This document shows positions 12,337-28,865 of a stretch of DNA of 28,865 nucleotides, piece after piece. The DNA is taken from assembly GCA_038127595.1 (NCBI GenBank), contig JAYPIC010000003.1, positions 27,064 through 55,928 on the forward strand, given 5' to 3'. The notes below the pieces were generated by a model, which saw only the letters and a program-made list of their open reading frames with translations, searched no databases and was not told the origin of the DNA. The translations under genes were made by a program, and so were the position numbers. Origin of the DNA: a bacterium (GTDB lineage Bacteria > Fidelibacterota > Marinisomatia > Marinisomatales > UBA1611). How positions within the stretch are numbered: position 1 is the first letter of the stretch; each line of letters begins with the position of its first letter.

Positions 12337-13146
12337 TTAAAACTCATAGGCTAAGCGAGTTTTAATTTTACCAGTTGGCTGTAATATGAAAGATAGATTT
12401 ACTTTATTATTATTTTTTGTGTACCACTTAGGAACAAGTACCCCAATTGCACTACCCACTAGATAACCCGCTACTACGTCTGAAAGAAAATGTTTACCTG
12501 CATCATAACGACAATACGCTGTGTATGCAGGAACTAAAAATGCTGATGCCCATAAATACGGTGAAATGTTGCTTCCAGGTCTATAATCCTCATGCATACT
12601 AGCCATTAGAAACCATGAAACTGCAGAAATAGATGTATGCCCTGAAAAAAAACTTTTTCTATTATCTTTTTTCAATTTGTAATTATCCGATGCATTGTCT
12701 GCGTACAAATATGGTCGCGGCCGACCTACTAATACTTTAGTGAAATTTGTAAAACCTAAGGTTAAAAAAAGGCTTTGAGCCCAAACAAAAGAGAAATTGC
12801 GATAATCGCTTCTAATTTCTTGATCAAACATCAATAATCCAGGTACAGCAATACTAGAAAATAATAATAGATCACTCACTTTTATACTGCCCACATTCCA
12901 ATTATCTATTGCCCTAGAATCATAATCAGGTATGTCACTAGGTTTTAAACCAGCTATCTCACTTAAATCCATCGGCGTATAGTCCATTAGCATAGAGCCT
13001 AATAATAATCCGCCACTAATCCCTGCAATTTTCATATCTAGGTTTCTTGATATATTATACGGGGAGTTGTTTTTCCCCTGCCCTTTAGCTAAAACGGATA
13101 AAATAGCTACAAGAAGGAATACTCTTTGTGCCAGCTTAATTATCAT
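12337..13146 (-). CDS. PAP2 superfamily phosphatase
   Basis: KVLVGRPRP, SFFSGH and RYDAGKHFLSDVVAG match the three PAP2 motifs; N-terminal signal peptide. Confidence 0.9.
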   Translation of the reverse strand: MIIKLAQRVFLLVAILSVLAKGQGKNNSPYNISRNLDMKIAGISGGLLLGSMLMDYTPMDLSEIAGLKPSDIPDYDSRAIDNWNVGSIKVSDLLLFSSIAVPGLLMFDQEIRSDYRNFSFVWAQSLFLTLGFTNFTKVLVGRPRPYLYADNASDNYKLKKDNRKSFFSGHTSISAVSWFLMASMHEDYRPGSNISPYLWASAFLVPAYTAYCRYDAGKHFLSDVVAGYLVGSAIGVLVPKWYTKNNNKVNLSFILQPTGKIKTRLAYEF

Positions 13147-13306: not shown

Positions 13307-14560
13307 ATGATTAATCACCCTCTATCAAACATTATTTCACAGACAAAATTATTAGAAGCACTTGCAGATCAATATGGCACGCCTACTTATGTCTACTCGA
13401 AAAGTAGGTTAGAGCATAATATTAGTGAATTGCTGAGAGCGATAAGTATGAGTTTTGCTAACTACCAGATATACTATGCCGTAAAAGCAAATAGCAACAT
13501 TAACATTATTAAAATACTTAAAAATAAATTTAATGACCTGGGATGTGACTGTTCTAGTCCAGGAGAATTATTCGCGGCAGAAAAAGCAAACGTTAACATG
13601 TCAGACTGTGTTTACACGGGTAATTATGAGTCAATAGAAGACCTTAAGACCGCATTTAATGCAGGAGCAGAAATTAATTTGGATGACTTAAATTCTTTTA
13701 ATAGGCTGAAAACAATTGGAGTGCCTGAATACGTAAGCTTCAGACTAAACCCAGGAAAAGGGCATGGACAATTTAAAGGTATTATTACAGGCGGAAAAGA
13801 TTCAAAATTTGGTATTCCGAAAGAGAATATTGTTGAAGCCTATAAAAAAGCAAAAAGTTTTGGAGTAAAAAGGTTTGGACTTCAATGCCACGCTGGATCT
13901 TCTACACTTGATGCAGATACATTCAGTGATATAACCGAGCAGATATTAAAATCTGCAAGAGAAGTCGAAAATTCTTTAGAACGAAAACTAGAAAAGATTA
14001 GTATTGGAAGTGGATTTGGGATCCCTTACCGAGATGAGGAAAGGCCTGTAAATCTTCAAAAATTATTTAAAAATATAAGCCTAGTATTTAAAGGTTACTA
14101 CGGAGATGATAATAAAAATTGGCCAACACTATGTATTGAGCCCGGGAGAATATTAGTTGCTGATACTGGATTCATACTAACTAGAGTAACTGGAACTAAG
14201 TCTTCTTATAAACAATTTATTGGCCTTGATGCAGGAATGGAAACATTAATGCGACCAGCTCTTTATGGAGCTTTCCATCGAGTGCAAAAAATCGGTGAAA
14301 ACGATGGTAAAACTCTTAAATATGACATTACAGGAAGAATATGCGAAAATACAGACCGCATATCTAGAGATTACGATATGCCAACTATAAATGAAGAGGA
14401 ACTTTGTGCGATAATGGATAGTGGAGCATATGGGTACTCAATGTCACATAATTTTAATACAAGGCCGCGTCCAGCAGAGGTTTTAATTGATGAAGAAAAA
14501 TTAGTCTTAATCAGAGAAAGAGAATCAATCGAAGACATATTTAGAGGATGCAATGTATAA
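13307..14560 (+). CDS. lysA: Diaminopimelate decarboxylase
   Basis: YGTPTYVY, PLP lysine YAVKAN, SPGEL, SKFGI, HAGS, GSGFG, EPGRILV, RPALYG, GRICENTD, GAYGYSM...FNTRPRPAEV. Confidence 0.92.
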   Translation: MINHPLSNIISQTKLLEALADQYGTPTYVYSKSRLEHNISELLRAISMSFANYQIYYAVKANSNINIIKILKNKFNDLGCDCSSPGELFAAEKANVNMSDCVYTGNYESIEDLKTAFNAGAEINLDDLNSFNRLKTIGVPEYVSFRLNPGKGHGQFKGIITGGKDSKFGIPKENIVEAYKKAKSFGVKRFGLQCHAGSSTLDADTFSDITEQILKSAREVENSLERKLEKISIGSGFGIPYRDEERPVNLQKLFKNISLVFKGYYGDDNKNWPTLCIEPGRILVADTGFILTRVTGTKSSYKQFIGLDAGMETLMRPALYGAFHRVQKIGENDGKTLKYDITGRICENTDRISRDYDMPTINEEELCAIMDSGAYGYSMSHNFNTRPRPAEVLIDEEKLVLIRERESIEDIFRGCNV

Positions 14561-16991
14561 AAAAATATTGATTCTTTATTTTTTAATGATACAATCTTTG
14601 CTTTCTCAACATTATCAAAGTATTCATCAGCAGCAACTAGAGTATTACAACGCCAATTATGTAATGCCCGAAAGAACTGACACTAACATTGTAATAAATC
14701 CGATTTCTAACAGGACAAGAAACCCATCTAGAGAGGTATTTGGCTATCACCCATATTGGATGGGTACAGCATGGACGAGTTATAATTTTAATTTGATTTC
14801 TACTCTAGCTTACTTTAGCGCGGAAGTAACATCCACAGGCGGACTTAGCAATTTACATGGGTGGCCAGTTGCTAGTCTAATTAATGAAGCTCATGAGCAT
14901 GGAACAAAAGTTGTATTATGTGCAACCCTCTTTAATAGTAGCGATATCACAACGTTATTAAGCAGCGCTCAATACAGACAGAATTTAATCGATAATTTAC
15001 TGTCTCAAGTTCAAGCTGGTAACGCTGATGGTGTAAACATTGACTTCGAATCATTCCCAGCATCACAACGAAATAACATGGTTACTTTTATAACAGACCT
15101 CACAGAAGCTTTTCACACTGCAATCCCAGGATCTCAAGTTACATTAGCAATGCCTCCTGTTGATTGGAGCAATGCGTGGGATTATAATGCACTAGCATCA
15201 ATAAGCGATGGATTATTTATCATGGGTTATAATTACCATTACAGCGGAAGCTCCACTACAGGGCCAAACTCTCCCCTCTCAGGACCAGGTTACACGTTAA
15301 CTTGGACAGTCTTAGATTATTTAAACAAAACAAACTTTCAAGCTGAAAAACTCATTCTTGGCATTCCTTATTATGGATTTGAATGGCCCAGCGCTTCAAA
15401 TGCATCTGGCGCGACCACAAATGGAACAGGAAGTCCAAAATTTTATTCTGAGATTGAGGGACTTGCTCAGTCATACGGTAAATTATGGCACTCGACTTCA
15501 CAAACACCTTGGTACCATTATAACAACAATGGCTGGAACCAAGGATGGTACGATGATAGTTTATCTCTATCCTTAAAATATGATTTTGCATTATTTAATG
15601 ATCTCAAAGGCGTAGGTATATGGGCTCTTGGATATGATGATGGACGACCTGAGCTATGGGAATTATTACATGCTAAGTTTGGAGACACAGCACCACCAAC
15701 AAAGCCATCAAACTTGTATATGAAAAACATTGGCCAAGGTTCTATTAAAATAGATTTTACTGGATCTGAAAACGCATCTAATTTCATAGTTTTGCGAGGC
15801 TATCTAGATGTTGTTGGTGGCTTAGATACAGTTGGAATATTCTCTGAAAGGCCTATAATAATTGATAATCTTGTAGAAGGTGACTCTTACTTCCTTAGCG
15901 TAGTAGCAAGAAATTCACTTGGTAGCAGTGAACCGACAGAAATGCTTGGTGTTATACCATCAAGTGATGATGTTAAAGCATTAATTGTAAATGGATTTGA
16001 TCGAGTCAATGGAACGAATAACACCTTTGATTTTATTCGCCAGCATGGAAGCGCACTTCATACTCATGGTATCTCATTTGATGCTACTTCAAATGAGGCT
16101 GTAGTCAGCCAGCAGATTGACCTTTTAGATTATCAATTTATCGATTGGATCCTTGGAGAAGAAGGCACATCCACGAGCGTATTTTCATATAGTGAGCAAA
16201 ATAAAATTATTGAATATCTAGAATCAGGAAAATTTTTGTTTATCTCTGGCTCAGAAATAGGCTATGATCTTGAAGCACAAGGCAGTGATACAGACAAAGA
16301 TTTTTATCAAAACTATTTAAAAGCAGATTACATTTCAGATGCAGCTGGCGGGCATCAAGGAGTCTACAGCGGCTATGGCCTTTCAAATACAATGTTTGAT
16401 GGCATAAATAACATGACCTATGATAATGGAAGTCAAGGAACGTACAATGTAGATTGGCCCGATGGGATTAAACCTACAGGCGGAGCTTCGCTTTGCGCAG
16501 CTTTCACTAATACTGATTATAATACTGTAGGCGGTATGGGTATTGAATATGAAGGTGCTTTTGGTTTTAGCAATCAAACAGGAGGTATTGTTTACCTATC
16601 AGTAGGATTCGAGGCGATTTACCCTGAGGCTAAAAGAAATGATTTAATGCTTAGAATAATAAATAAATATGAGTCTCAGCTTAACACATTTGATGAAATA
16701 GATATTCACCCATCAGATTTAAAAATAAATAACATTTATCCAAACCCGTCAAATAATTCCATGACTATTTCATTTTCAGTTCTATCTCAACTTTCTCCAA
16801 TTGAAATAAGTATTAGAAACATACTTGGCCAACAAATGTATAAAACATATATTACGCCAAAATCTAGAAATATCAATTGGACTTGGCATGGCAATGATGA
16901 CCAAGGCTTTAACGCGCCGTCAGGAACATATTTCATTTCTTTATCTCAAAAAAATATTAGCCAGACTAAAAAAATTACATTACTTAAGTGA
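14553..16991 (+). CDS. Secreted GH18 glycoside hydrolase with FN3-like domain, unassigned alpha/beta domain and T9SS-type CTD
   Basis: Signal peptide; catalytic DGVNIDFE (DxxDxE); IMGYNY; KLILGIPYYG; GVGIWALGYDD; FN3-like segment after PPTKPSNL; CTD IYPNPSN...SGTYFI...KKITLLK. Confidence 0.88.
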   Translation: MYKKILILYFLMIQSLLSQHYQSIHQQQLEYYNANYVMPERTDTNIVINPISNRTRNPSREVFGYHPYWMGTAWTSYNFNLISTLAYFSAEVTSTGGLSNLHGWPVASLINEAHEHGTKVVLCATLFNSSDITTLLSSAQYRQNLIDNLLSQVQAGNADGVNIDFESFPASQRNNMVTFITDLTEAFHTAIPGSQVTLAMPPVDWSNAWDYNALASISDGLFIMGYNYHYSGSSTTGPNSPLSGPGYTLTWTVLDYLNKTNFQAEKLILGIPYYGFEWPSASNASGATTNGTGSPKFYSEIEGLAQSYGKLWHSTSQTPWYHYNNNGWNQGWYDDSLSLSLKYDFALFNDLKGVGIWALGYDDGRPELWELLHAKFGDTAPPTKPSNLYMKNIGQGSIKIDFTGSENASNFIVLRGYLDVVGGLDTVGIFSERPIIIDNLVEGDSYFLSVVARNSLGSSEPTEMLGVIPSSDDVKALIVNGFDRVNGTNNTFDFIRQHGSALHTHGISFDATSNEAVVSQQIDLLDYQFIDWILGEEGTSTSVFSYSEQNKIIEYLESGKFLFISGSEIGYDLEAQGSDTDKDFYQNYLKADYISDAAGGHQGVYSGYGLSNTMFDGINNMTYDNGSQGTYNVDWPDGIKPTGGASLCAAFTNTDYNTVGGMGIEYEGAFGFSNQTGGIVYLSVGFEAIYPEAKRNDLMLRIINKYESQLNTFDEIDIHPSDLKINNIYPNPSNNSMTISFSVLSQLSPIEISIRNILGQQMYKTYITPKSRNINWTWHGNDDQGFNAPSGTYFISLSQKNISQTKKITLLK

Positions 16992-18295
16992 TTCATTTAT
17001 CCAAAATATTACTATTTAGCTACATTACATTAGTTTTTATAAACTGCCAACAAACTAAAAATAAGAGTGAGAATAATCAAATACCCAACGCACAATATGA
17101 AAATTTAGCACCATCTTACATTAAAGGAATTCATGAAACACAGTCACTTTATTATAAAAATAAGTCAAAACCAATTATAGAGAAATTGAATGTACTAAAT
17201 GGCATTGATGTTTTACTTGAGAAAAAACTTCACTTCATTAAATCTAGAAAAATCGCACTTGTAACAAACCATAGCGGTGTAGATAAAAATTCAATCCCAA
17301 ACTACAAGAGATTGATGGAAGTCGAAGATGTTGAATTAAAGGTAATTTTTTCTCCAGAACATGGATTATTTGGAGAGTCGGAAGCTGGAGAAAAAATAAA
17401 TTACTCAGATATTGATGAGCTTCCGAGAGTAATTAGTTTATATGGTGGCACAAGAAAACCAAGCGCTGAAATGCTAGAAGATGTAAATCTTATCATTTAT
17501 GATATACAAGATATCGGCGCACGTTTTTATACATACATTTCTACATTAGGTATGGTCATGGAGGCAGCAGCTGAACTAGATATTCCAGTATTAGTTTTAG
17601 ACAGGCCTAATCCAATAAGAGCAGATATTATAGAGGGGCCTTTACTTGATATCAAACATCAGTCTTTCGTTGGATACTACCCTATTCCAACTAGATATGG
17701 TGGAACAGTAGGCGAGCTAGCAAATAAGATCATAGAAAATAAATGGATCTCACCCATTCCAGAACTTGAAGTAATTAAGATGGAAGGGTGGCAGTCAAAT
17801 GCCTGGTACGATCAAACTGACCTACCGTGGATTCCTCCTTCCCCAAACATACCAGATCTTAAAACTGCAATTATATACCCTGGAATGTGTTTATTTGAAG
17901 GTACAAATATCAGCGAAGGTAGAGGAACACCAAATCCATTTAAATGGATAGGTTCACCTTGGATTGATGGGAAGAAATTATCACAAACATTAAATAATTT
18001 TAAGTTACCCGGCGTTGTCTTTGTACCAAAGAGCTTTACCCCAATCCGAATACCAGGTAAATCAGAAAATCCAAAATTTAAAGATCAAAAATGTAATGGC
18101 ATCGAAGTTTGGATCACAGATCGCGATAAATACAGAAGCATTGATGTTGGAGTACTGACTTTGTATACGATTTATAATATGTATCCAGAAAAAATAAAAA
18201 TTCGAGAAAGCGGATTAAATAGATTATGGGGTAATAATACGCTATATGAAAAACTTACTCGCGGCGTCACGGCTCAAGATATATTAAAATATTAA
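16988..18295 (+). CDS. DUF1343 / NamZ-family exo-beta-N-acetylmuramidase, likely lipoprotein
   Basis: GIDVL, IALVTNHSG, FSPEHG, SLYG, YDIQDIGARFYTY, VLDRPNP, PPSPN, EGTNISEGRGT; lipobox-like FIN-C. Confidence 0.9.
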   Translation: MIHLSKILLFSYITLVFINCQQTKNKSENNQIPNAQYENLAPSYIKGIHETQSLYYKNKSKPIIEKLNVLNGIDVLLEKKLHFIKSRKIALVTNHSGVDKNSIPNYKRLMEVEDVELKVIFSPEHGLFGESEAGEKINYSDIDELPRVISLYGGTRKPSAEMLEDVNLIIYDIQDIGARFYTYISTLGMVMEAAAELDIPVLVLDRPNPIRADIIEGPLLDIKHQSFVGYYPIPTRYGGTVGELANKIIENKWISPIPELEVIKMEGWQSNAWYDQTDLPWIPPSPNIPDLKTAIIYPGMCLFEGTNISEGRGTPNPFKWIGSPWIDGKKLSQTLNNFKLPGVVFVPKSFTPIRIPGKSENPKFKDQKCNGIEVWITDRDKYRSIDVGVLTLYTIYNMYPEKIKIRESGLNRLWGNNTLYEKLTRGVTAQDILKY

Positions 18296-18299
18296 TTTT

Positions 18300-18974
18300 A
18301 TGGGTGATTCGTTAACAATAACATCTATTTTTTTATTAGGGTGCTTGCATGCTTTAGAGCCAGGGCATGGTAAAACTTTTCTTTTGGCATATACTGTTGG
18401 TGGAAAATTAGATTTTCAAAAAATAGCGCTTTTAACACTTAGCTTATTAGTTTCTCATTTTTTTGTTCTAAGTATAATCGCAATCATCTTCAATCTAATT
18501 CTAACCGAAATAGCCAATTCATTTATGCATGAATTTTCTCATTGGATAGCACCAATTATAATACTGAGTTTTGGTTCTTTTATTTTAGCCAGAGCAATTT
18601 ATAAAATCAAACATGTGCATTCAGATAATTGTGGCCACAACCATGGGGTTTTTGAAGATACAAAAATAGAAAACCCAATCACGGTAGGCATATTAACAGG
18701 AATGTTGCCATGCGCTTCTTCTATAGCTGTAGTCATGATGACTGGAATGAATCCATCAATAATATCTATAATTCGCTTCATATTGATTTATGTGTTAGGA
18801 ATAGCTCTAATATTATTTTTAATCGTTTTGACATTTAATTTCACAAAAAACATAGTTATGGAAAAATTTAATGATTTGAAAATTAATATTAATCAGGAGT
18901 TATTAAGTGGATGTCTGATACTAGGTGTTGGTTTTATTTACTTGGCATACAACCTGGTAGGACACTCGCATTAA
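18300..18974 (+). CDS. RcnA/NiCoT-like nickel-cobalt transporter
   Basis: LHALEPGHGKT signature, short His loop HVHSDNCGHNH, GMLPC, about 6 TM helices. Confidence 0.8.
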   Translation: MGDSLTITSIFLLGCLHALEPGHGKTFLLAYTVGGKLDFQKIALLTLSLLVSHFFVLSIIAIIFNLILTEIANSFMHEFSHWIAPIIILSFGSFILARAIYKIKHVHSDNCGHNHGVFEDTKIENPITVGILTGMLPCASSIAVVMMTGMNPSIISIIRFILIYVLGIALILFLIVLTFNFTKNIVMEKFNDLKININQELLSGCLILGVGFIYLAYNLVGHSH

Positions 18975-18989
18975 AAACACTAAATGACT

Positions 18990-20306
18990 TTATTTTTTTA
19001 ATAAAATCATTTTTATAGGCTCAATATCATCAGATGGAGAAGGTTTAGCAAAATAAACACCTGAACCTAATTTTTTACCATTTAAATCTTTTCCATCCCA
19101 AACAAATTCTAAACGTCCAGAAAAGGCATCTACTCTTTCAACCATATTTACTTTTCTACCTAAAATATCATAAATGTTCATTTTAAAATCCATCTTATCC
19201 TTCAATTCAAAACTAAATGTGACTGCATTAAAAAACGGGTTTGGATATGGATCTTTAAAAATTGATATTGGTGGTATTTCAAAGTAATCTTGGATGAAAC
19301 TAAATATCTCAGCTCGATATCTTGGAAGTTCAATCCATACATTATCTCCAGGGCATGATGTAGTCCCGAAGTAATCACGATGACCTAGTAATAATGATGG
19401 GTTTTGTCCATATGTATCTGAAATCCACGAAAACAGCCTTACTATAGCTTCTCTACTTTCAGGAGTTATTTCTTGCGTGCAAGAATATGATGTTTCAGGA
19501 GGGTGATAACATCCTAACAAACAAACTCCTATATTTCCTGTGTTTGCTCCGCCAACATGAGCACCGATGACTGTCTCAGGCCTCCCTTGATATATATTAC
19601 CGACCCTATCCACAAGAAAATGATAACCAATATCATTCCATCCTCTACCATTTTGATGAAAATCTTGAATCCAATATACTTGATTTTTACCTTCCTCTAA
19701 ATCATCAGCACTGCAACATGCAGCATGATGAAGTGTAAGCTTATCAAAATATGGGTGATAACTGTATGCTCCCTTTGAATCTTCAGCTCCCCACTCTTCT
19801 CTACTAATAATAGTTGGCTTTGGTATAGCTCCAGACACTATTTCCATTTTTTTTGCTAGACCAGGTAGCTCATCCTCAATTGGGAATATTATTATGGAGT
19901 TAATATCAATAGAACCGACAGCAACGACCTTGTAGGAGAATGAAAAAGGTAGGCTTTTTAAATCTTTTAAAAAAGTTGCAATAACACTGCCATCATTAGG
20001 TTGAGAAAATAAATTTCCATTTATTGTGATATCATTGTTTCCATCATTAACAATAAATAGTACACTTTCAATATTATCTCCAATGAATTCAATTGCAGCT
20101 CCTTCAATTGCTTGATCAATTAAAGGAGACTCCCCTTCTACAATTAAAAAATTTAGACTATCTCTTGAGCTAAATACTGGATTTCTGTCAACACTTAATC
20201 CAATATCATCAAGCTGAGCTGAAATTTTTTGAGGAATGATAAATGAAATTGATAAAAAGAAAAAAACTCTATGAACTATAGAGTAACGAAGAAAAAGATT
20301 ATACAA
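18990..20306 (-). CDS. N-acetylmuramoyl-L-alanine amidase (Amidase_2/PGRP-like) with C-terminal T9SS/FlgD-like domain
   Basis: IISREEWGA, LTLHHAA, GWNDIGYHF, GAHVGG, NIGVCLLG, GHRD..TSCPG (Zn ligands present); CTD PYPNPF...IYDILGR...WDGKD...SGVYF. Start codon uncertain. Confidence 0.88.
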   Translation of the reverse strand: MYNLFLRYSIVHRVFFFLSISFIIPQKISAQLDDIGLSVDRNPVFSSRDSLNFLIVEGESPLIDQAIEGAAIEFIGDNIESVLFIVNDGNNDITINGNLFSQPNDGSVIATFLKDLKSLPFSFSYKVVAVGSIDINSIIIFPIEDELPGLAKKMEIVSGAIPKPTIISREEWGAEDSKGAYSYHPYFDKLTLHHAACCSADDLEEGKNQVYWIQDFHQNGRGWNDIGYHFLVDRVGNIYQGRPETVIGAHVGGANTGNIGVCLLGCYHPPETSYSCTQEITPESREAIVRLFSWISDTYGQNPSLLLGHRDYFGTTSCPGDNVWIELPRYRAEIFSFIQDYFEIPPISIFKDPYPNPFFNAVTFSFELKDKMDFKMNIYDILGRKVNMVERVDAFSGRLEFVWDGKDLNGKKLGSGVYFAKPSPSDDIEPIKMILLKK

Positions 20307-20319
20307 TTAAAAAGTCAGT

Positions 20320-21357
20320 CTAGTAATTAAAACCGAGCGATACTCTTTGCACAATACCAAGAGGTCCAAAATCAGATGATGTATAATCAACACTTAAATT
20401 ATTATTTGAGTTCATGATTGGATATTTCACACCGACACCAAAGGACAGCCCCTCAATGGCATCCTTTTTACCTATGCCTGGGTATCCTGCTCTTATGGAA
20501 AACATATTGTTTACATTAGTTTCAATACCAATGTTGATATATTCATAATTATCATTGGGGTGAACGGCATCAAAAGCAAAAAGGACATCAAGTTTCTCTT
20601 GGTCAATGATATAACCGCCTAAACCGACTCTAAATAATAAAGGAAGTGGAAAAGCATCTGTTTCATATTGTGCGTTAACAAATTCAATATTGCCTTGATT
20701 GTTAGGATCGGGGTCCACGCTAATATTCATATCTCTACCTGCTAGTGATATATCATTTCCAAAATTAGCTATGCTAGCACCTAAGATTAAGTTCTTGATT
20801 GGCGTTTTATATTGTACTCCAATATCAACACCAATAGTTTGCCCTGAAGAATGCCATATACGCTGCCTAATATTTTTAATTGTTGCTCCAAGTGATAATT
20901 CATCTGTTAGTTTTTTACCAACACTTAATCCAATTGACATATCTTGAGAGTTAAACTTCTCTCCAGTCCCATTTGGATTTTCAATTGTTCTAACCAAGTC
21001 ATCAGGCGATGTAAGCATTGCAAGAGACAAAGAAAATACTCCAACCCTAGGCCACTCAAATCCGAAAGAACCAAAATTATAATCTGTTCCTGCAAGCCAA
21101 CCATTATTTTCAAAATATGCTTGAATTCCTTTAAGGTTTGCTAAACCGGCAGGATTCCAAAAACCACTAGATAGATCATTGACAATGGCTACATTTGCAC
21201 CGCCCATCGCAGATCCTCTAGCTCCAGCACTAATTTTTAAAAACTGAGCTGCGGTCGTACCTACTTTTGAAATATCTTGATCATTCTCCAACTGAGAAAA
21301 ACTAAAGGATATTCCGAATATTAATATTGCCGTAATTATTCTATAATTTTTCATCAT
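20320..21357 (-). CDS. PorV/PorQ-family (UPF0164-like) outer-membrane beta-barrel
   Basis: KVGTTAAQFLKISAGARGSAMG, FWNPAGLA, LPLLFRVG, aromatic C-terminus SLGFNY. Confidence 0.85.
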   Translation of the reverse strand: MMKNYRIITAILIFGISFSFSQLENDQDISKVGTTAAQFLKISAGARGSAMGGANVAIVNDLSSGFWNPAGLANLKGIQAYFENNGWLAGTDYNFGSFGFEWPRVGVFSLSLAMLTSPDDLVRTIENPNGTGEKFNSQDMSIGLSVGKKLTDELSLGATIKNIRQRIWHSSGQTIGVDIGVQYKTPIKNLILGASIANFGNDISLAGRDMNISVDPDPNNQGNIEFVNAQYETDAFPLPLLFRVGLGGYIIDQEKLDVLFAFDAVHPNDNYEYINIGIETNVNNMFSIRAGYPGIGKKDAIEGLSFGVGVKYPIMNSNNNLSVDYTSSDFGPLGIVQRVSLGFNY

Positions 21358-24300
21358 TTAATTACCGCAAATCTTCCAGTTGATTCATTACCGTTATCGC
21401 TCTTCACATGGAAAATATACATTCCAAATGAAACAGGAAAGTTGTCCGATGTTGTTAGATCCCAATACTTAATACCATCTTCTATTGAACTATTATGTTT
21501 TAATGATCGTACCAACTCGCCAGACATAGTATATATGTCAATTGAGCAGTTAGATGGCAGATTAGCAAAATAGACCCTTCTTGGTCCTCTATCTAACGGA
21601 TTTTGAAGATCAAGAGGTTCAATATTGCTAGAAACTACATAAGGATTTGGCACAACATATATATCATCCATATTATCTTTTTCTACAATAATATCTTCTT
21701 TTGATGAAGAAGTAGAAAATGCGAAAATATCATCAACAAAGGCTCTTGTCGTAAATATAGAGAATACATCTCCCTCCATTGGTGCAATAGGTACATCAGT
21801 TGTATCAAATGTCAATTCCCATGAGAAAGAACTCATCGATGAGTCTTGAAGAATTATAATCCGCTCACCAGGGTTCCAGGTACTATCAAATGGGGCAGTT
21901 TCAATTACGATGAATGGTAATTGCCTAGGTTCAAAACCTCTTGTTGTTTCCCAAATTTCAAAATTTGCCTGAACATATTCATATCCAGGTCGGTAATTGT
22001 TACTAATTTTTTCATTAAACCAGCGCAATTCATAATCAGCTGGATATTTGTTATTACCAAGATTATTAAAAGGCTTTACGGTAGGGACCCAATTATTTGG
22101 ACTGTCTTGATTCCAGCCTATTTTTTCCTCATCTAGCTCTAACACCTCATTTTGAATACTTAACGTCATGCCATCAAAAATAGGATTGCCTTCCTCAAGT
22201 GCAAGTTTTTTACTGTTTTTAATTGGATAATAAATGAATGTAGCTACTATCTGTTCAGACTCATTTATTGAACCATCGTTGTGAATTAGAATTTGCCCAT
22301 CTGTATCTAATAAATCATAATCACTACCCTTAGTCAAAAGGATGCCATTAGAATTATGCAACTCAAAAGTAAGACTGTCAATATTTTGATGAGAAAGCTT
22401 ATGATAATTTCCTAACCTTGCTATCAATGTATCAGAAACTTCTTTCTCATCTAAAACGCTATAATTAAGCCCATCATCTTCACTAAAAATAATTTTATAG
22501 TCGTTTTGATCTTGGATAGCTGTGTGATCTATAATCTCTAAATTTATCAAGCCAGTACCATTACCTTGGATTTGATCTGGCAAACTATCCTTAAATGTTG
22601 AAGCAACGTAACCAGCTGTCATGGTCCTAGGCACTACAGCTACTGTATTTACATCCAAAAGAACTTCACCTGTCTCAGGATTTACAGTAATGGTTTTTGA
22701 ACATTCAACTGGAGCTACCATTAACTCAGCATCACCATGATCGTAAGAAACAACTGCATAATAATATTTTTGACCATTGATAACATTATTAGAGTCAACA
22801 AATACGTGACGAAGTCCAGTATTATCCCCCAAATTATAACTAATTCCTCTTCCTGAATACGGGATTGAACTCAATCCTGAATAGTCATTTACTAAATCAA
22901 ACTTTGCTGATGCACCGTCAACAGTCTTTAAAGGTTCAAATAAAAATTTAGACCCATTTGCATCTGTTATTGTTTGCTGATCTAAAAAAGAAGGATCAGT
23001 AGATCTATAAATGACATATCCCTCAAAATCATATGTTTCAGTTATTGGATCAAAACTAGTTTCTGCAACATCATCCCAATATAAAGTGACCTTTTGGTCA
23101 CCTGGAACTGCAGTAACGTTTGGTTTTTCTGGTGGTTTAGCAAATTGATAATTTTTTTCATAAATATCTTGTGCAGTAACAGCATTTAAAGTCAAGTCAT
23201 CATAATCTTGTCCCACGATCAACGCTATGCTAAACCTTCTGGATTCTTTTTTCGGTAAGTCAATTGGACCAGAACTATATATGAATATATAATCCCCAGC
23301 TTGAACTGAATTAGCTGAATCGAATACTCCAGGGGTTAAATAATTTTCAAAAATGAATTGATCATTTGAGATTCTATTTTGACTCGTAAAAGGAGGAGAG
23401 GCAAATCCAGTTAAACCGACCATATCAGATTCATCAAGATCAGTCCAATCTATGTTTGGTTCACCTGGCTTTCTCGGATCAAATGGATCTCCAGGTGTTG
23501 GCAAACCATCGTCCTCTCCCTCGTCTCCTGTATTAGGAACACCATCAATTCCAACATCATGTTTTTCTACATTCCAATCTCCATCCTCATCTATACCATT
23601 ATCTTGCCTTTCATCAATCATACCATCGTCGTCATTATCAATACCATCATATGGCTGACCAGGACTTTCTAAAAATTTATATCCAAAATATCCAGGCGCC
23701 CTACCAGACACATCAGAAATACCATCAGCATCCCAACAATAGACCATGTTCAGATTTTGATCAAAAAATGAAAGATCATCTTGCCAATTAGAAGGGCCAC
23801 CAACATGAGGATCGCCCCACATGCCAAAAGTAACATCATTAAGATCTTTATCACTCTTATTTGTGACTTTATAAATGAGAAAAATAATATCCTCAGCTAG
23901 AGGGTTTGCCCATTGATAATATCTAGATTCAATCTCAATACCTAAGCCTCTCTTTGAGGAATCAGCTTCGAACGGATAGTATTGGAATTCCTTATTTGTT
24001 CTATCATCAACTACAAAAAATGATTCCAAGTCAGAATTTGAAGCCCCTTGCCTAAGCGCACCAGGCCAAACGTAATCTTTTAAATTTGAATTATACCATC
24101 CAAATGGCCAACTATCGGGCTTTCCATCTCCATCTCTATCCAAGTCATTACTTGTCGGAATATTTTCACTTACTGGGTCACCATAAGGCACTGTAAAATC
24201 GTCATTCCATGCCAACGGTTCCCAACCATAAAATTCCAATCCGTCTGGAGAAACCTCTCCACCAAGTGAAGTAAGACCATCACTGATCATGTTAGCATAC

Positions 24301-24713
24301 CAGTTTGTATCACCGTCAACAATTTCATAAAAAGCATCTTGATGATGGCCTGATTCAAGGGGGACTTTTGCACAAATAAATGGCCCAAACTCATACCCAT
24401 ACCCTAACGTCTCCCAAACAATATCCGTTACTCTATTTCCAGGACTACTAATCGATCCATAGTTCCAAATTTCCGTAGTTATTTTATTCCCGTTTAATAT
24501 TGCTTTTTGGCGAGGCAAAATCTGCTCGTCCGCAGCTTCTGCTTTTCTGGATGCAGACAATCTGTCTCTCCATCTATAATATCTATCATGATCGCGTTTT
24601 GTCCAGCTTTTTTTAGGCCCTTCAATATACCACTCTACATCTTTCCCAAATGGCCATTGTGCTGATAAACTCGTAATAATAAAGATTGCTGATATAATTA
24701 TTCTTTTAAACAT
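21354..24713 (-). CDS. Large secreted hypothetical protein with Ca-binding-like Asp repeats, FN3-like region and VVPNPY-type CTD
   Basis: Signal peptide SLSA-Q; DRDGDGKPD, DGIDNDDDGMIDE; PGDQKVTLYWD...DFEGYVIYRS...NGQKYYYAVVSYD; C-terminus IYVVPNPY...IDIYTMSGELV...WDL...GMYIFHV...FAVIK. Confidence 0.75.
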   Translation of the reverse strand: MFKRIIISAIFIITSLSAQWPFGKDVEWYIEGPKKSWTKRDHDRYYRWRDRLSASRKAEAADEQILPRQKAILNGNKITTEIWNYGSISSPGNRVTDIVWETLGYGYEFGPFICAKVPLESGHHQDAFYEIVDGDTNWYANMISDGLTSLGGEVSPDGLEFYGWEPLAWNDDFTVPYGDPVSENIPTSNDLDRDGDGKPDSWPFGWYNSNLKDYVWPGALRQGASNSDLESFFVVDDRTNKEFQYYPFEADSSKRGLGIEIESRYYQWANPLAEDIIFLIYKVTNKSDKDLNDVTFGMWGDPHVGGPSNWQDDLSFFDQNLNMVYCWDADGISDVSGRAPGYFGYKFLESPGQPYDGIDNDDDGMIDERQDNGIDEDGDWNVEKHDVGIDGVPNTGDEGEDDGLPTPGDPFDPRKPGEPNIDWTDLDESDMVGLTGFASPPFTSQNRISNDQFIFENYLTPGVFDSANSVQAGDYIFIYSSGPIDLPKKESRRFSIALIVGQDYDDLTLNAVTAQDIYEKNYQFAKPPEKPNVTAVPGDQKVTLYWDDVAETSFDPITETYDFEGYVIYRSTDPSFLDQQTITDANGSKFLFEPLKTVDGASAKFDLVNDYSGLSSIPYSGRGISYNLGDNTGLRHVFVDSNNVINGQKYYYAVVSYDHGDAELMVAPVECSKTITVNPETGEVLLDVNTVAVVPRTMTAGYVASTFKDSLPDQIQGNGTGLINLEIIDHTAIQDQNDYKIIFSEDDGLNYSVLDEKEVSDTLIARLGNYHKLSHQNIDSLTFELHNSNGILLTKGSDYDLLDTDGQILIHNDGSINESEQIVATFIYYPIKNSKKLALEEGNPIFDGMTLSIQNEVLELDEEKIGWNQDSPNNWVPTVKPFNNLGNNKYPADYELRWFNEKISNNYRPGYEYVQANFEIWETTRGFEPRQLPFIVIETAPFDSTWNPGERIIILQDSSMSSFSWELTFDTTDVPIAPMEGDVFSIFTTRAFVDDIFAFSTSSSKEDIIVEKDNMDDIYVVPNPYVVSSNIEPLDLQNPLDRGPRRVYFANLPSNCSIDIYTMSGELVRSLKHNSSIEDGIKYWDLTTSDNFPVSFGMYIFHVKSDNGNESTGRFAVIK

Positions 24714-24717
24714 AATC

Positions 24718-27372
24718 CTATAAATCTAAGCTCAGTCCCAGTTTAAAAGATCTAGGAGCAGAGTAATAATTTGGTCTAGTTACATAATCCTCCCATGTAT
24801 GCAGACCAGCCATTCCATAATTTGCAATTAATTGTTCAGACTCCTGATTACTGCGATACTCATATGTGTATTTGGCAGTTCCAGTGTCATTAAAAACATA
24901 ACGTTCATTTCTAATGTCGAATAGATTGTAAACTCTCACAAAAAGAGAAACTTTATAGCTTCCAACTGAGACTCTTGTTTCAAGCTTTGCATCAACATTT
25001 CTTTGTACCGGTTTCCTACCACTGTTTGGTTTTGGAACAAAATTTGCATTTGGAATTGAAGGCGTATAAGGCCATCCAGTAGCTATTTTACCAATCAATC
25101 CAAGAGTAGTTTTAGATGGATCCCCGATGATTAAAGTCGTATTTAAAAGATGAGATTGATCCCATGATAATGGAACAATTAATTTTTCTTCTTCAATGCC
25201 ACTCAATGCGCTGAAATAAAACGAACCTGAGTTAACGGAGTTTCCTTCAGATTTTTGATAGGTATAATCTACCCAAAGACTAGTTCTAGAAACGGGATCA
25301 TATCTCTTAGTAAGAGATAAAGTCAACCCTCTTGCACTTCCATAATCCTTATTTAAATAGATTGAATAGTTAGAAGGTCCATAATTAGGGCTATTATACC
25401 TAATACTTTGCAGAGCAAGAAGCTCTCTAATATCTTTATGAAATAAATTAATATCCATTCCGATCATATTACCAAACTGTTGTTGAAAACCAAATTCATA
25501 CAATACCGTCTTCTCTGGCTTTAGATCAGGATTACCTACAGTAGGGGATAAACCAGCACCAAAATAACTTTCGCGATACAAATTTCTAAGCGTTGGCATT
25601 TGATAGAAATGACCATAAGAAAAGTGGAAAATACCTTTGTCAGTTATAGGCAGAGAAACACCGATTCGTGGGGATATCATTGTTTTTGTCGTAGCCTCTT
25701 TTTCATCTGCTTCAGGGTATATAAGGTTTGCAATCGTTGAATCATTAGGTATAAAAGCGTCATATCTAAGACCAACATTCATGATCATTGAACTATACTC
25801 CATTTTGTCTTGAATGTATGCAGAATATTGAACAGCATCTTTATCATAAAAAATATGATATGGAGATTTATTTTCTAGAAGAACCGTAGGCTCATTATAA
25901 TTTTGATCATAAAGCACCTGAAGATTTCGCTCCACTAAATTATCATTTCTAAAACTGAATCCAGTTTTAATCTCATGATTTTCACTTATTTGAGTTGTAA
26001 AATCAAATTTCCCACCAATTGATTTAGAATTTCTGTATGTATGTCCCATTTGAGTGCCACCAAACAAAAATGTGGCTGAGGTGGGTTCAGTATTTATGTA
26101 ATCTGTATTGACATACCTTTCATCTAAGGTGTCAGCGTACAAATAATTTTTATAATCAGTATCACTAATAAAAATATTTCCCTCATAAAAGCTTTTCGGT
26201 GAAAGAGAATGATTGATCTGAAGCGAGTGATTATTATTTTCTGTATAGCCTGTAGCTATGCCGTCAGGATTATACTTGTAAACATGTGAATAGCTCTTAC
26301 TCTGAGATTTAGACATTATTGATTGAGTTGAAATTTTAATTCTAGGAGATACTCTCCATGTAAATTTTGATAAAAAATTATTGCTTTCACTAGGGTTCAT
26401 AGGAACATAGCTACTGTCACCTGACATTTGTATATACCAATCACCACTTGGAGGAAAATATGCAAAATCGCTCGGCCTATGTTCCCTAACACCATAAAGA
26501 TAACCATCACTTTTATTATTTCTTACTGATACATTAAAAGTAAGCTTATCACCTAAACTTGGAATAACTGGCCCAGATACAAACGCATCCAAAGTGCGAT
26601 TTGCTGTTATTGATTGATTAGAAATATTTGGAAAGATTTCATCCGCATTTGAATTATAATCTCCAGCATAGTAAGAAATACTGCCCTCGTAATTTTTACC
26701 TCCATCTCTTACCTTTACATTAACAACACCACTCATAGCATTTCCATACTCAGCATTAAATGCACCACTAACAAGCTTCATTTCCTCTAATGCTTTATTA
26801 CTTAAGCCTACTGCGAGAGAATTTGTGAAAAAGGGGTTTGATACAGAAACGCCGCCAATATAATATCCGACCTCATTACTCCTTCCGCCTCGAACATGAA
26901 GAGCACCGCCAGCACTTTGGTTCACTCCAGCATGAGTTGATAAAACTCCAAGAAAGGATTCAACAGGCATATCTTGAATCTCTTTTGCTGTAGTTACTCT
27001 TTGAGATGCTGTTAGGTCTTTTTGAACCAAAGGTCTTTCAGCGAGCACTGTAACCTCTTGCCCTTCAACAACAGATTCCTCAAGACTTATATTCAACTCA
27101 GTGGTTTGATCGGTTGTAATTCTTACATCCTTAACTATTACAGGAGCAAATCCTATAGCATCAGCACGAACAGAATAACTACCAGGAGGTATATTTAAAA
27201 TAACAAATTTACCTCTTTCATCAGAGGCAACACCTAGATATGAATCAACAATAATAATGTTGACACCAACTGCAGGAGCATTATCTGATTTTTGAACAAC
27301 AGTACCTACTAACTTACCATTCGAGCTATAAGCTAGTGCTACAAAAAGTAAAGACGCTATTATTTTTTTCAT
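24718..27372 (-). CDS. TonB-dependent receptor with N-terminal carboxypeptidase-regulatory-like domain
   Basis: GKLVGTV...GKFVILNIPPGSY; plug HVRGGRSNEV and GAFNAEYGNAMSGVVN; SPRIGVS, GNPDLKPEKT, NLFD, C-terminal PRSFKLGLSLDL. Confidence 0.93.
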   Translation of the reverse strand: MKKIIASLLFVALAYSSNGKLVGTVVQKSDNAPAVGVNIIIVDSYLGVASDERGKFVILNIPPGSYSVRADAIGFAPVIVKDVRITTDQTTELNISLEESVVEGQEVTVLAERPLVQKDLTASQRVTTAKEIQDMPVESFLGVLSTHAGVNQSAGGALHVRGGRSNEVGYYIGGVSVSNPFFTNSLAVGLSNKALEEMKLVSGAFNAEYGNAMSGVVNVKVRDGGKNYEGSISYYAGDYNSNADEIFPNISNQSITANRTLDAFVSGPVIPSLGDKLTFNVSVRNNKSDGYLYGVREHRPSDFAYFPPSGDWYIQMSGDSSYVPMNPSESNNFLSKFTWRVSPRIKISTQSIMSKSQSKSYSHVYKYNPDGIATGYTENNNHSLQINHSLSPKSFYEGNIFISDTDYKNYLYADTLDERYVNTDYINTEPTSATFLFGGTQMGHTYRNSKSIGGKFDFTTQISENHEIKTGFSFRNDNLVERNLQVLYDQNYNEPTVLLENKSPYHIFYDKDAVQYSAYIQDKMEYSSMIMNVGLRYDAFIPNDSTIANLIYPEADEKEATTKTMISPRIGVSLPITDKGIFHFSYGHFYQMPTLRNLYRESYFGAGLSPTVGNPDLKPEKTVLYEFGFQQQFGNMIGMDINLFHKDIRELLALQSIRYNSPNYGPSNYSIYLNKDYGSARGLTLSLTKRYDPVSRTSLWVDYTYQKSEGNSVNSGSFYFSALSGIEEEKLIVPLSWDQSHLLNTTLIIGDPSKTTLGLIGKIATGWPYTPSIPNANFVPKPNSGRKPVQRNVDAKLETRVSVGSYKVSLFVRVYNLFDIRNERYVFNDTGTAKYTYEYRSNQESEQLIANYGMAGLHTWEDYVTRPNYYSAPRSFKLGLSLDL

Positions 27373-27387
27373 TGCCGGGGTGTAAGA

Positions 27388-27416
27388 TATAAGGGAGGGC
27401 AGTGCCCTCCCTTATA
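27388..27416 (-). terminator. Strong intergenic stem-loop (terminator, attenuator or mRNA-stabilising hairpin)
   Basis: TATAAGGGAGGGC-AGT-GCCCTCCCTTATA perfect inverted repeat between the FG-GAP gene stop (27441) and the TBDR start (27372); no poly-U tract. Confidence 0.65.
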
Positions 27417-27440
27417 CAACTTGATTAAATGGTTAGCTTA

Positions 27441-28865
27441 TTACTTAAGCAAGGTCATGCTTTTGACCTTTTTCATGCCTGCCCACTCAAGGCTGTAGAA
27501 ATACATTCCTGTAGAAACAGACAATCCATTTTTATTTTTACCGTTCCACATAACTTTGTGTGTACCAGCAGAGACCAATTCGTTATTGATCAGTGTATTT
27601 ACCAACTGACCATTAACATTGTAAATCTTTACAGATACTTTACGATCGATTGGTACTGTGTACTGTATCGTCGTATTTGGGTTAAATGGATTAGGATAGT
27701 TTTGCTCAAGACGATATTCTTCTGGAGCAATAAACGTAATTGGGTCATCAGCAGCTAATTGCTCTGAACCATTTTCAATAAGAACGAAACTCCATGCTTT
27801 TTCATTTTCCACTTTTGTTAACGTAGTATCATACTTTGAATCAGTAGCATTCCATGTGTAAGCCGTATGAGTAAGTGAATCTCTTACGTTTTGAAAAGAT
27901 AAAAGAATTTCCTTCTTGTTATCTCCATCAAAATCTAAAAGATCACCTTCCCAATGAGTCAATATTCTTGATGGGAATCCCCACTTAAATGCATGACTAA
28001 CAGATACATCACCATTCTCATCTGTGGTTGTTGTAGTCTCAGTTACATCGAGCTCTCCCCAATAAATAACTTTTTCAAGATAGCTAGATCCGGAAGATGG
28101 ATCAGGACCGATGTATTCTAAAGCAGTAACATTTGGCCTACTTCTACTTGAAAAGATATATGGGTTATCATGACCATCATAGCCATTTCCAATATCTCCA
28201 GAGAAAGTACCTGCGTTACCAATTCTATGAACCTGGTCAGGACCGATGGTTGTTACGTCTTCACCATTATCATAATCTACGACATAAATATCACCAGCAT
28301 TAACACCCCATGATCCACCATAGTCAGCATAGTATACCTCATGGTTTCCATCTCCATCAACATCAGAAGCAAAACCTCCAAATAATGAAAATTCATCGCT
28401 AGGATATGTCGGCTGATAGTAGCTACCCGCAGAACCTGAATCAGCAATTACATACGTATCAGGTCCAGTAGAACTAAAGTTATAGAGGTTGAAGTAATTC
28501 CAATGATGGTTTACTACCTCATAATTACCATCTCCATTTAAATCAGCTGGTAATGCATGGTAAGGACTTCCACCACCATAGGTGTTACTGTTAGTTTGGA
28601 ATTCGGTAACCCAGGTTTCAAATCCTCCGCCAGAATTGTGAACAAGATCATCACCTTCTTGCAAAGAAACAACCAATGTCCCTCTAGGACTACCTCTCCT
28701 AATAGCAGTAATTAACTCTTGGCGACCATCACCATCTATATCAAATAGTGTGATCCTTTCGTGATCACCTCTGAATCCAGCTCCATCATCACCACAGCAA
28801 ATTGCAACTTCAACAGCACATATAGCTGAAGGTTGCTCACCATAGTTATCACTGCCCATTACTCC
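27441..28865 (-). CDS. 5'-truncated secreted FG-GAP/VCBS-repeat protein with T9SS/FlgD-like CTD
   Basis: DIDGDGRQE, DLNGDGNYE, DVDGDGNHE, DFDGDNKKE repeats; CTD LEQNYPNPFNPNTTI...GMYFY...SMTLLK. Frame stays open to the window edge (GGA GTA ATG) and no signal peptide is visible. Confidence 0.8.
   Translation of the reverse strand, partial: GVMGSDNYGEQPSAICAVEVAICCGDDGAGFRGDHERITLFDIDGDGRQELITAIRRGSPRGTLVVSLQEGDDLVHNSGGGFETWVTEFQTNSNTYGGGSPYHALPADLNGDGNYEVVNHHWNYFNLYNFSSTGPDTYVIADSGSAGSYYQPTYPSDEFSLFGGFASDVDGDGNHEVYYADYGGSWGVNAGDIYVVDYDNGEDVTTIGPDQVHRIGNAGTFSGDIGNGYDGHDNPYIFSSRSRPNVTALEYIGPDPSSGSSYLEKVIYWGELDVTETTTTTDENGDVSVSHAFKWGFPSRILTHWEGDLLDFDGDNKKEILLSFQNVRDSLTHTAYTWNATDSKYDTTLTKVENEKAWSFVLIENGSEQLAADDPITFIAPEEYRLEQNYPNPFNPNTTIQYTVPIDRKVSVKIYNVNGQLVNTLINNELVSAGTHKVMWNGKNKNGLSVSTGMYFYSLEWAGMKKVKSMTLLK

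Follow-up and report, generated by a model that had tools for sequence, protein, structure and literature searches.

What would a bacterium with no recognisable route to diaminopimelate (DAP) do with an intact gene for DAP decarboxylase, lysA, placed in one operon with a secreted glycosidase and a muramidase of the NamZ family? The question is posed by a 28,865-nucleotide stretch of a SAR406 (Marinimicrobia/Fidelibacterota) genome of the order Marinisomatales, called here the window (contig JAYPIC010000003.1, positions 27,064 to 55,928, or G000:C3:27064-55928 in our designation; assembly GCA_038127595.1, 2.0 Mb in 133 contigs, 95.8% complete). The uncultured SAR406 lineage is widespread in the dark ocean, and the dissolved organic matter of the sea is known to include remnants of peptidoglycan. 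In the window, lysA is followed by genes for a glycoside hydrolase of family 18 (GH18) and for NamZ, a GH171 enzyme, and the three genes face a cassette that includes an amidase of the peptidoglycan recognition protein (PGRP) type and a TonB-dependent receptor (TBDR). We favour, with modest confidence, the view that this is a peptidoglycan-utilisation locus of marine SAR406, built in the manner of a polysaccharide utilisation locus (PUL) without SusC/SusD, in which the orphan lysA serves in the salvage of DAP.

Organisation of the locus

Seven open reading frames form the core of the locus. Three lie on the plus strand, lysA (13307-14560), the GH18 gene (14553-16991) and namZ (16988-18295), and four on the minus strand: the amidase gene (18990-20306) and those for an outer-membrane barrel of the PorV/PorQ family (20320-21357), a 1119-amino-acid exported protein (21354-24713) and the TBDR (24718-27372). 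An earlier description made from the DNA letters, referred to here as the sequence-only reading, had the plus-strand genes overlapping one another and converging on the receptor unit. Its coordinates are correct, as are the overlaps, which amount to 8 nt between lysA and the GH18 gene and 4 nt between the latter and namZ; the plus-strand operon converges on the minus-strand cassette of TBDR, 1119-amino-acid protein, barrel and amidase. To this description we add that the minus-strand unit extends beyond 27372. Its first gene, cut by the end of the window, encodes an FG-GAP repeat protein, of which the C-terminal 474 amino acids are present (27441-28865; matches to FG-GAP_3, FlgD_ig and Por_Secre_tail) and whose full-length orthologue in a related genome, G003, has 1222 amino acids.

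Enzymes encoded in the two units

LysA exceeds the equivalog cut-off of TIGR01048 (360.6 bits against 297.9), its 15 best matches in the PDB are all DAP decarboxylases, and it scores far under the cut-offs of the DokD and FslC models. The protein is cytoplasmic and has no signal peptide. LysA is proposed to turn scavenged meso-DAP into L-lysine.

The GH18 protein consists of a signal peptide, a GH18 domain at about amino acids 60-380 (PF00704, 120.6 bits against a cut-off of 29.6, covering positions 59-317 of the 317 in the profile), a stretch called Fn3-like from a reading of the sequence by eye, a GATase1-like domain (amino acids 470-725) and a sorting tail of the type IX secretion system (TIGR04183, 35.4 bits against 23). 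The best solved relatives of the protein are 4wiw, YdhD (3cz8), the chitinase 8hw6, YaaH (4s3k) and SleL (4s3j), at E values from 1e-19 to 1e-12, and its GH18 domain is nearer to the YdhD/YaaH/SleL group than to classical chitinases. The classical catalytic motif of the family we take to be DxxDxDxE. In the window's enzyme the corresponding stretch reads DGVNIDFE, which retains the final Asp and the Glu and has Asn for the middle Asp; 4wiw and YdhD share DGVxIDFE and likewise do without the middle Asp, having V and T in its place. SleL and YaaH presumably carry LysM domains, instead of which the window's protein has the Fn3-like stretch, the GATase1-like domain and the type IX tail. A further difference is that YdhD, YaaH and SleL are Bacillus spore proteins, whereas the GH18 protein of the window is type IX cargo. 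The tested member of the group is a spore-cortex N-acetylglucosaminidase: in PMC10653849, SleL is listed as a glucosaminidase that cleaves small peptidoglycan fragments, and YdhD only as similar to YaaH. A wide search for relatives of the GH18 protein returned metagenomic proteins only, named Marinimicrobia where an organism was given and in some cases automatically named YaaH, and no partner such as LysM that would settle specificity. The enzyme is proposed to be an endo-beta-N-acetylglucosaminidase that would act on peptidoglycan glycan. Cleavage by a glucosaminidase would put N-acetylmuramic acid (MurNAc) at the non-reducing end, the kind of end that NamZ requires.

The region at amino acids 470-725 of the GH18 protein was considered as a clue to the substrate and set aside, as its GATase1-like/GH42-domain fold (model pLDDT 82.6) says nothing on this point. 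The same domain (window 15960-16727) recurs in separate tail proteins of about 880-900 amino acids beside the locus in G009, G023 and G040 (L017:18101-20000, L018 and L019:5022-7712).

NamZ matches both NamZ_N (248.7 bits) and NamZ_C (147 bits) over the Pfam cut-offs. Its translation has a signal peptide with a Cys at position 20, in keeping with the lipoprotein that had been suspected from the sequence, and NamZ is a probable lipoprotein. NamZ acts on terminal MurNAc and not on N-acetylglucosamine (GlcNAc) (PMC8054146), and specificity within GH171 differs between TfNamZ1 and TfNamZ2 (10.1101/2021.12.02.470905).

The Amidase_2 domain of the fourth enzyme spans amino acids 188-321 (PF01510, 62.6 bits against a cut-off of 26). 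When aligned to PGRP3 and PGRP-LB it keeps the stretches HHAA, GHRD and SCPG, in which the conserved His, His and Cys are, we assume, the zinc ligands of catalytic PGRPs. The amidase is proposed to strip stem peptides from peptidoglycan. Sorting tails had been claimed for both this protein and the GH18 protein. The claim stands for GH18; the amidase tail scores just under the cut-off (22.8 bits against 23), with BLASTP matches to at least 25 other tails in the genome. The genome encodes the type IX translocon protein SprA (507 bits, on contig C83) and at least 30 proteins with similar sorting tails.

The uptake cassette and its copies

The TBDR has plug and barrel domains and an N-terminal CarboxypepD_reg domain. 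It matches generic receptor models only and none of the SusC type, and no protein of the window matches a SusD-like family. The PorV/PorQ-like protein, third gene of the cassette, exceeds the cut-off of NF033709, a model of the broad family (182.9 bits against 90), and stays under the equivalog cut-offs of PorV (62.5 against 250) and PorQ (85.9 against 220); it is a member of the PorV/PorQ family, and neither PorV nor PorQ itself. The 1119-amino-acid protein has a weak sorting tail (21.2 bits against 23) and no Pfam family. It belongs to a phylum-restricted family, its nearest Atlas clusters being unnamed Fidelibacterota proteins. We propose that it is a surface substrate-binding partner of the TBDR, and that the TBDR is an importer of peptidoglycan fragments.

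Cassettes of this type are found several times in the genome. By BLASTP, TBDR, large protein and barrel occur together on C17 and, a short way upstream of the window, at C3:18396-26748; parts of this triplet, cut by contig ends, lie on C43, C40 and C73. Paralogues of the 1119-amino-acid protein follow TBDRs at C3:21791-25732 and on C43, C40 and C17, and three close paralogues of the barrel, besides weaker ones, each follow a TBDR and a large protein. Elsewhere in the genome the cassette type stands beside alpha-glucan and laminarin enzymes; the copy on C43 is followed by a GH16-malectin tail protein, a GH3 enzyme and a CotH tail protein. Since the enzymes beside the cassette differ from copy to copy, the arrangement is PUL-like, with one cassette per substrate. 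The enzymes linked to the window's own cassette are the amidase, GH18 and NamZ.

One of these copies, at G000:C3:10000-28922, lies upstream of the window and reaches into its positions 1-1859. Its genes for a TBDR, a 1313-amino-acid protein and a PorV-like barrel have those for TrmB, GH77, glucan phosphorylase, an SSF carrier and a GH13 amylase on one side and that for an X25/CBM-like starch-binding tail protein on the other. It seems to be a similarly built locus for the use of alpha-glucans.

Conservation across the order

We searched 41 genomes of the order, including the window's own, and counted as lysA orthologues matches of at least 47% identity, which left out paralogues of 26-28% identity in G027 and G036. 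An orthologue without internal stops was found in 25 of the 41 genomes (47-95% identity). It lies directly beside the long GH18 gene in 19 of the 25 and beside namZ in two more (G040 and G015), hence beside one or the other in 21; in the remaining four (G011, G021, G031 and G034) it adjoins neither.

Synteny of the full cluster was compared by BLASTP in 20 stretches from 13 genomes. The complete convergent arrangement, in which lysA-GH18-namZ faces the amidase, PorV-like barrel, large protein, TBDR and FG-GAP genes, is present in G003 and G007, which belong to the same genus, and at 50-65% identity in G014 and G020 from other genera. G009 also has the convergent cluster, with a 7-kb insertion of lipopolysaccharide and sialic-acid genes that parts namZ from the GH18 gene. 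In G040, from family f2, lysA and namZ are accompanied by a GHL10 enzyme with a sorting tail instead of GH18, by a tail protein, and by the amidase and the cassette. TBDR orthologues (56-98% identity) lie in the same cluster in G003, G007, G014, G020, G022 and G040, and in the first five of these the FG-GAP protein is kept upstream of the TBDR. NamZ orthologues adjoin GH18 or lysA across the order. A linkage that persists across genera and families at 50-65% protein identity is far beyond chance, and the synteny that the sequence-only reading had named as a check is thereby borne out.

Other loci vary the theme. In G015, lysA-namZ is joined by a C26-like amidotransferase, an S13 DD-carboxypeptidase/endopeptidase (234.8 bits on the PBP4 model) and the S66 LD-carboxypeptidase LdcA, and the locus continues with two Gate-domain proteins, an amino-acid permease, an NhaC-like carrier, agmatinase, a GHL10 protein and a second NamZ. 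The lysA-GH18-namZ operon of G032 includes an alpha-L-fucosidase, an S13 peptidase, a metallo-beta-lactamase-fold protein and a GH20 enzyme; opposite it stands a SusC/SusD pair, accompanied by an FG-GAP/ASPIC protein and a CBM9 protein. In G037, MurQ (382 bits) adjoins NamZ, together with a class-A beta-lactamase-like protein and a sodium:alanine symporter. The genes added in these variant loci are mostly of wall-specific function. A short form of GH18, 28-32% identical, pairs with a NamZ paralogue in G010, G011, G012, G016 and G034.

GHL10 (PF02638) thus replaces GH18 near namZ in G040 (L019:3098-4936) and lies beside the second namZ in G015 (L020:13723-16818), which hints that this little-studied family may also act on peptidoglycan glycan.

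DAP and lysine synthesis

Whether lysA could be a salvage gene had been made to depend on whether dapA, dapB and dapF are missing. Profile searches of the window's own genome gave no match to any of the three, and no DapL over the cut-off. Among the 41 genomes of the order, dapA exceeded its cut-off in none (four have sub-threshold paralogues of the DapA family), dapB in none, and dapF in one (G022); murA, taken as a control for detection, was found in 34 of the 41 and in all 27 high-quality genomes. Across the phylum, dapB was over the cut-off in 23 of 121 sampled genomes, none of them among the 34 from the window's class, and the families that have it are f22, f24, f26, f27, f29 and f31, plus one of 21 genomes of f23. 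The own genome was also searched by tblastn with three DapA, three DapB, two DapD, one Ddh and one DapF sequence from relatives in the phylum, with no match at E≤1e-3, and the controls drawn from the same loci (LysC, Asd, PBP4B-like, SSS and NamZ) all matched. Aspartate-family genes are present on C29, which encodes an archaeal-type Asd (326 bits), ThrA, ThrB, ThrC, MetA and MetY.

The window's genome keeps MurA, and its MurE scores 494 bits on the model of DAP-adding ligases (cut-off 373) and stays under the cut-off of the model of Lys-adding ones. This MurE carries at 413-416 the motif DNPR, which we take to mark DAP-adding enzymes. For an order that has MurA, a DAP-type MurE and lysA without recognisable dapA, dapB or dapF, no source of DAP can be recognised other than external peptidoglycan or free DAP. 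As no other route was recognised, the action of LysA on DAP from outside is likewise the only recognisable endogenous route to lysine.

Two other routes were considered and rejected for this genome. For the alpha-aminoadipate (LysW) route of lysine synthesis, only G031, G032 and G036 have a LysX over the cut-off; the best match in the own genome is RimK (390.8 bits), beside RimB. The extra Mur-ligase-like gene on C8, a candidate for tripeptide reuse of the Mpl type, is FolC, in searches that did not include Mpl's own model.

The order also includes very small genomes of family f12 (G035, and G102, a single contig of about 1.0 Mb). MurA was seen in G035, and lysA, NamZ and dapB were found in none of six f12 genomes; if the wall of these cells needs DAP or lysine, it would have to be imported ready-made.

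Other wall-degrading genes of the genome

Further genes with a place in peptidoglycan breakdown lie outside the window. An operon at C33:4275-9805 (L043) encodes a C26-like protein, an S13 peptidase, LdcA, two Gate-domain proteins and a permease, and adjoins an FG-GAP/ASPIC protein and another TBDR. At C86:3588-6131 (L045), an 847-amino-acid protein fuses a NagZ-like GH3 domain with a beta-lactamase-fold domain, resembling NagZ and AmiE of B. subtilis joined together. GH20 is represented on C16. The second namZ of the genome, on C19, has an SSF carrier gene next to it and alanine racemase close by, and a DacB-type peptidase and MurQ (355.9 bits against a cut-off of 302) are present as well.

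The operon of C26, S13, S66, two Gate-domain proteins and permease is common to C33 and G015 (L020:5029-10543). One may speculate that its C26-like protein cuts the gamma-D-Glu-DAP bond.

Proposed mechanism

Several observations lead us to infer the following route: the protein families, their conserved linkage, the undetected dapA, dapB, dapF and dapL, the repeated occurrence of the cassette beside other substrate-specific enzymes, and the detection of the locus in RNA libraries. At the cell surface, the type IX-exported amidase would cut stem peptides off foreign peptidoglycan, and the type IX-exported GH18 enzyme would cut the glycan at GlcNAc-MurNAc bonds, leaving MurNAc at the non-reducing end. 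Import of the fragments would fall to the TBDR, acting with the FG-GAP protein, the 1119-amino-acid protein and the PorV/PorQ-like barrel. Terminal MurNAc would then be removed in the periplasm by the lipoprotein NamZ, with help from proteins encoded elsewhere, namely the GH3(NagZ)-AmiE-like fusion, GH20, the DacB-type DD-peptidase, LdcA and the peptidase-C26-like protein. In the cytoplasm, MurQ would open MurNAc-6-phosphate and LysA would decarboxylate the freed meso-DAP to L-lysine.

A scheme of depolymerisation, import and salvage had already been suggested for the locus. Its core is supported by the linkage, the DAP gap and murQ; its sugar route is incomplete, and the adjacency of lysA and namZ is ancestral. 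A wider claim is somewhat short of an even chance in our estimate: that the whole order of these abundant pelagic SAR406 consists of natural auxotrophs for DAP, and hence for lysine, which build their own wall with a DAP-type MurE and meet their needs by harvesting peptidoglycan through a type IX/TonB locus.

Relation to known systems

The sequence-only reading had known of no such locus in organisms of this kind. Within the phylum, dependence on muropeptides has in fact been published. According to PMC11652737, Fidelibacter multiformis IA91 (Marine Group A) derives wall, energy and carbon from exogenous muropeptides and is unable to make MurNAc, D-Ala, D-Glu, DAP and lysine; its murein holds Ala, Glu and Lys, and not DAP. 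The same source describes MurNAc catabolism of the MurQ type and traces the reliance on muropeptides to the ancestor of the phylum. Use of exogenous wall fragments without synthesis of DAP or lysine is what IA91 shares with our reading of SAR406. The differences are that IA91, an anaerobic subsurface organism of class AB16, has no wall synthesis genes in that account, whereas the window's order keeps MurA (34 of 41 genomes) and MurE and misses only the DAP branch; and that the account, as far as consulted, is silent on a type IX amidase, a TBDR cassette and an operon of lysA, GH18 and NamZ, although the main IA91 paper may cover marine clades. For marine clades, the literature located contained no report of the DAP gap, the orphan lysA or the locus, and the primary IA91 paper and its supplements may hold one; the SAR406 fosmid literature on diaminopimelate yielded only a dapE annotation.

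The nearest enzymatic parallel is in B. subtilis. There, according to PMC8054146, the operon murQ-murR-murP-amiE-nagZ-namZ allows NamZ, an exo-glucosaminidase and a muramoyl-L-alanine amidase to degrade peptidoglycan from the non-reducing end, with MurQ acting downstream. The SAR406 genome resembles it in having NamZ, here twice, the NagZ and AmiE-like fusion and MurQ. It differs in having neither the phosphotransferase system (PTS) transporter MurP nor MurR, and in having a PGRP-type amidase and a candidate GH18 glucosaminidase, both as type IX cargo, uptake by a TBDR, and lysA in the operon. In Tannerella forsythia, the cluster AmpG-NamZ1-MurT-MurK-MurQ, with NamZ1 and NamZ2, represents GH171-based salvage of one building block of the wall from the peptidoglycan of neighbours (10.1101/2021.12.02.470905). 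Both organisms would be Gram-negative auxotrophs of the FCB group that use GH171 on peptide-free glycan. The auxotrophy is for MurNAc in T. forsythia and would be for DAP and lysine here, searches of the SAR406 genome gave neither AnmK nor a kinase of the MurK type, and the T. forsythia cluster has no lysA. With the SusC/SusD PULs of Bacteroidota the locus shares an uptake module set beside secreted, substrate-specific enzymes, in several modules per genome. It differs from them in its phylum-specific protein of about 1100-1300 amino acids and its PorV/PorQ-family barrel, which stand in place of SusC/SusD, a pair met only in the relative G032.

Should the reading be right, the locus would provide a concrete mechanism for consumers of wall debris, with a pair of secreted enzymes, a cassette for uptake and exo-enzymes of the periplasm, and the cassette of TBDR, large protein and PorV-like barrel would be what this phylum has in the way of a PUL. 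If the wider claim of auxotrophy throughout the order also held, these bacteria would need peptidoglycan for growth and not merely as food, and the cells would be a dedicated sink for wall-derived organic matter in the ocean. The muropeptide dependence of IA91 would extend, in milder form, to marine clades that synthesise their wall. The DAP gap, the orphan lysA and the DAP-type MurE could together explain resistance to cultivation, and they suggest adding DAP or peptidoglycan to media.

Alternative explanations

Sequences from RNA libraries were compared with the window. Thirteen RNA-labelled runs hold part of the stretch, and four of them, from four studies, were mapped by their contigs in 30 bins, of which 29, 28, 30 and 26 were covered. 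Some contigs bridge neighbouring genes: lysA and GH18 (X1, 13438-16217), GH18 and namZ (X2, 16725-17598), and TBDR and FG-GAP (X3, 26921-28211). These contigs tell of the presence of the locus in RNA libraries and not of transcription or co-regulation, DNA carry-over being possible. By contig depth, a measure that cannot rank genes, the TBDR cassette stands higher and the FG-GAP gene very high. One X3 contig begins 5 nt ahead of the lysA ATG, at 13302, and has adapter sequence beyond that point, which is at most a weak hint of a fragment end. Scans for promoters (66 sites against 68.4 expected) and terminators (5 against 9.1 expected) gave nothing usable.

Like the limited meaning of these contigs, several observations weigh against a peptidoglycan-salvage locus. 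All genomes compared are metagenome-assembled, the own genome being in 133 contigs. No inner-membrane importer for DAP, peptides or muropeptides was identified in the window. The amidase is missing from two variants of the cluster, that of G013 and that of G022, where a BNR protein with a sorting tail takes its position. The call of MurE as a DAP-type enzyme is not safe, as the murein of IA91 holds lysine. Although MurQ is present, the other sugar genes that the sequence-only reading would have looked for are not in evidence: in the own genome, 95.8% complete, AnmK and a BadF/MurK-type kinase had no match, and the best NagA match reached 21.6 bits. With neither kinase nor NagA, no complete catabolic route for MurNAc (kinase or PTS, MurQ and NagA), from the formation of MurNAc-6-phosphate to the use of GlcNAc-6-phosphate, was recognised. 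In family f23, lysA is present in 21 of 21 genomes and dapB in only one or two, and in eight f23 genomes compared, among the NamZ matches listed, lysA and NamZ lie on different contigs or far apart on one.

The likeliest of the rival explanations is that the position of lysA is merely inherited. It would then be the leftover of an operon lysC-dapB-dapA-dapD-lysA, serving occasional DAP detoxification or on its way to vanishing, and the cargo of the TBDR would be unrelated; we consider this unlikely. It draws its force from DAP-prototrophic relatives. In the dapB-positive G046, the order is AmiE/PBP4B-like, SSS, lysA, NamZ, SSS-like, LdcA, two small genes, DacB, lysC, dapB, dapA and dapD, which puts lysA-namZ at most 10 kb from lysC-dapB-dapA-dapD, and G052 has lysC-dapB-dapA-dapD-lysA in one operon, back to back with an aminotransferase gene and namZ; in G141 the dap genes are accompanied by ddh, asd and lysC, and lysA is elsewhere. 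The adjacency of lysA and namZ in such genomes indicates an old neighbourhood that predates the loss of dap genes, and in the window's order lysC-dapBAD has apparently been lost and lysA retained. Adjacency alone is therefore partly inherited synteny and no proof of salvage. Moreover, lysA was found neither in the six f12 genomes nor in several other genomes of the order, and lysA-GH18-namZ occurs without the TBDR cassette in G037, and in G032 with SusC/SusD in its place. On the other side, lysA is intact in all 25 of its bearers, spread over at least seven families, which would not be expected of a gene without substrate. GH18 has been inserted between lysA and namZ with the operon unbroken and with an 8-nt overlap to lysA, the convergent pairing with the amidase/TBDR cassette is held at 50-60% identity across genera and in f2, and variant loci add LdcA, DD-peptidases, GH20 and MurQ. 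What is left of the argument for salvage is an intact orphan lysA, in 25 genomes, tied to secreted wall hydrolases.

The target might also be chitin, chito-oligosaccharides or the N-glycans of GlcNAc-rich glycoproteins, with GH18 as a chitinase or an ENGase and with NamZ and the amidase contributing side activities. GH18 is the classical chitinase family, and its specificity in the window is inferred solely from its nearest neighbours; chitinases, chitotriosidase among them, follow close behind in the PDB list (E 1e-17 to 1e-13), and there is a weak match to the ENGase family GH85 (E 8e-6). G032 adds GH20 and alpha-L-fucosidase, G020 and G022 add a BNR/Asp-box tail protein, and NagA was not found, so neither route is complete. 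Such a target is nevertheless rather improbable: the top PDB matches are the YdhD/YaaH/SleL group, whose DGVxIDFE lacks the second Asp of classical chitinases, the amidase is of the PGRP type with its proposed metal-binding residues kept, S13 DD-peptidase, LdcA and MurQ co-locate in relatives, and the pairing of GH18 with NamZ exists in two independent forms, with the long and with the short GH18. The activity of NamZ on terminal MurNAc (PMC8054146) argues in the same direction.

The cell might instead recycle turnover products of its own wall, as B. subtilis does. This would employ much the same enzymes, since NamZ, the NagZ-AmiE-like fusion, MurQ and LdcA are those of known recycling pathways (PMC8054146). 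We regard it as highly improbable here. Enzymes with type IX tails would act beyond the outer membrane, and a TBDR serves for uptake; both point to an external polymer, and recycling yields no net DAP in a cell that does not make DAP.

Flanking and intervening genes

Between namZ and the amidase lies a gene that was absent from the sequence-only reading. It encodes a 224-amino-acid polytopic membrane protein (18300-18974, plus strand) that is DsbD_2-like (PF13386, 27.5 bits) and reaches 41.1 bits on NF007454 (Ni/Co efflux), under the cut-off of that model. An orthologue occupies the same place only in G003, G007 and G008, all of the same genus, and the gene is probably not a core part of the locus; its product may conceivably transport a wall fragment.

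On the other side, a gene for a PAP2-family membrane phosphatase (12337-13146, minus strand; PF01569, 70.4 bits) is divergent from lysA. Its orthologue adjoins lysA in G003, G007, G008, G013 and G022, and a PAP2 gene does likewise in G032. Farther upstream, at 7035-11854 on the minus strand, lie lexA, a gene for a Y-family polymerase (ImuB/DinB-like, 388 amino acids) and one for a DnaE2-like error-prone polymerase (995 amino acids). The set resembles an SOS mutagenesis cassette without a separate imuA, and it also adjoins the locus in G003, G007, G008 and G013.

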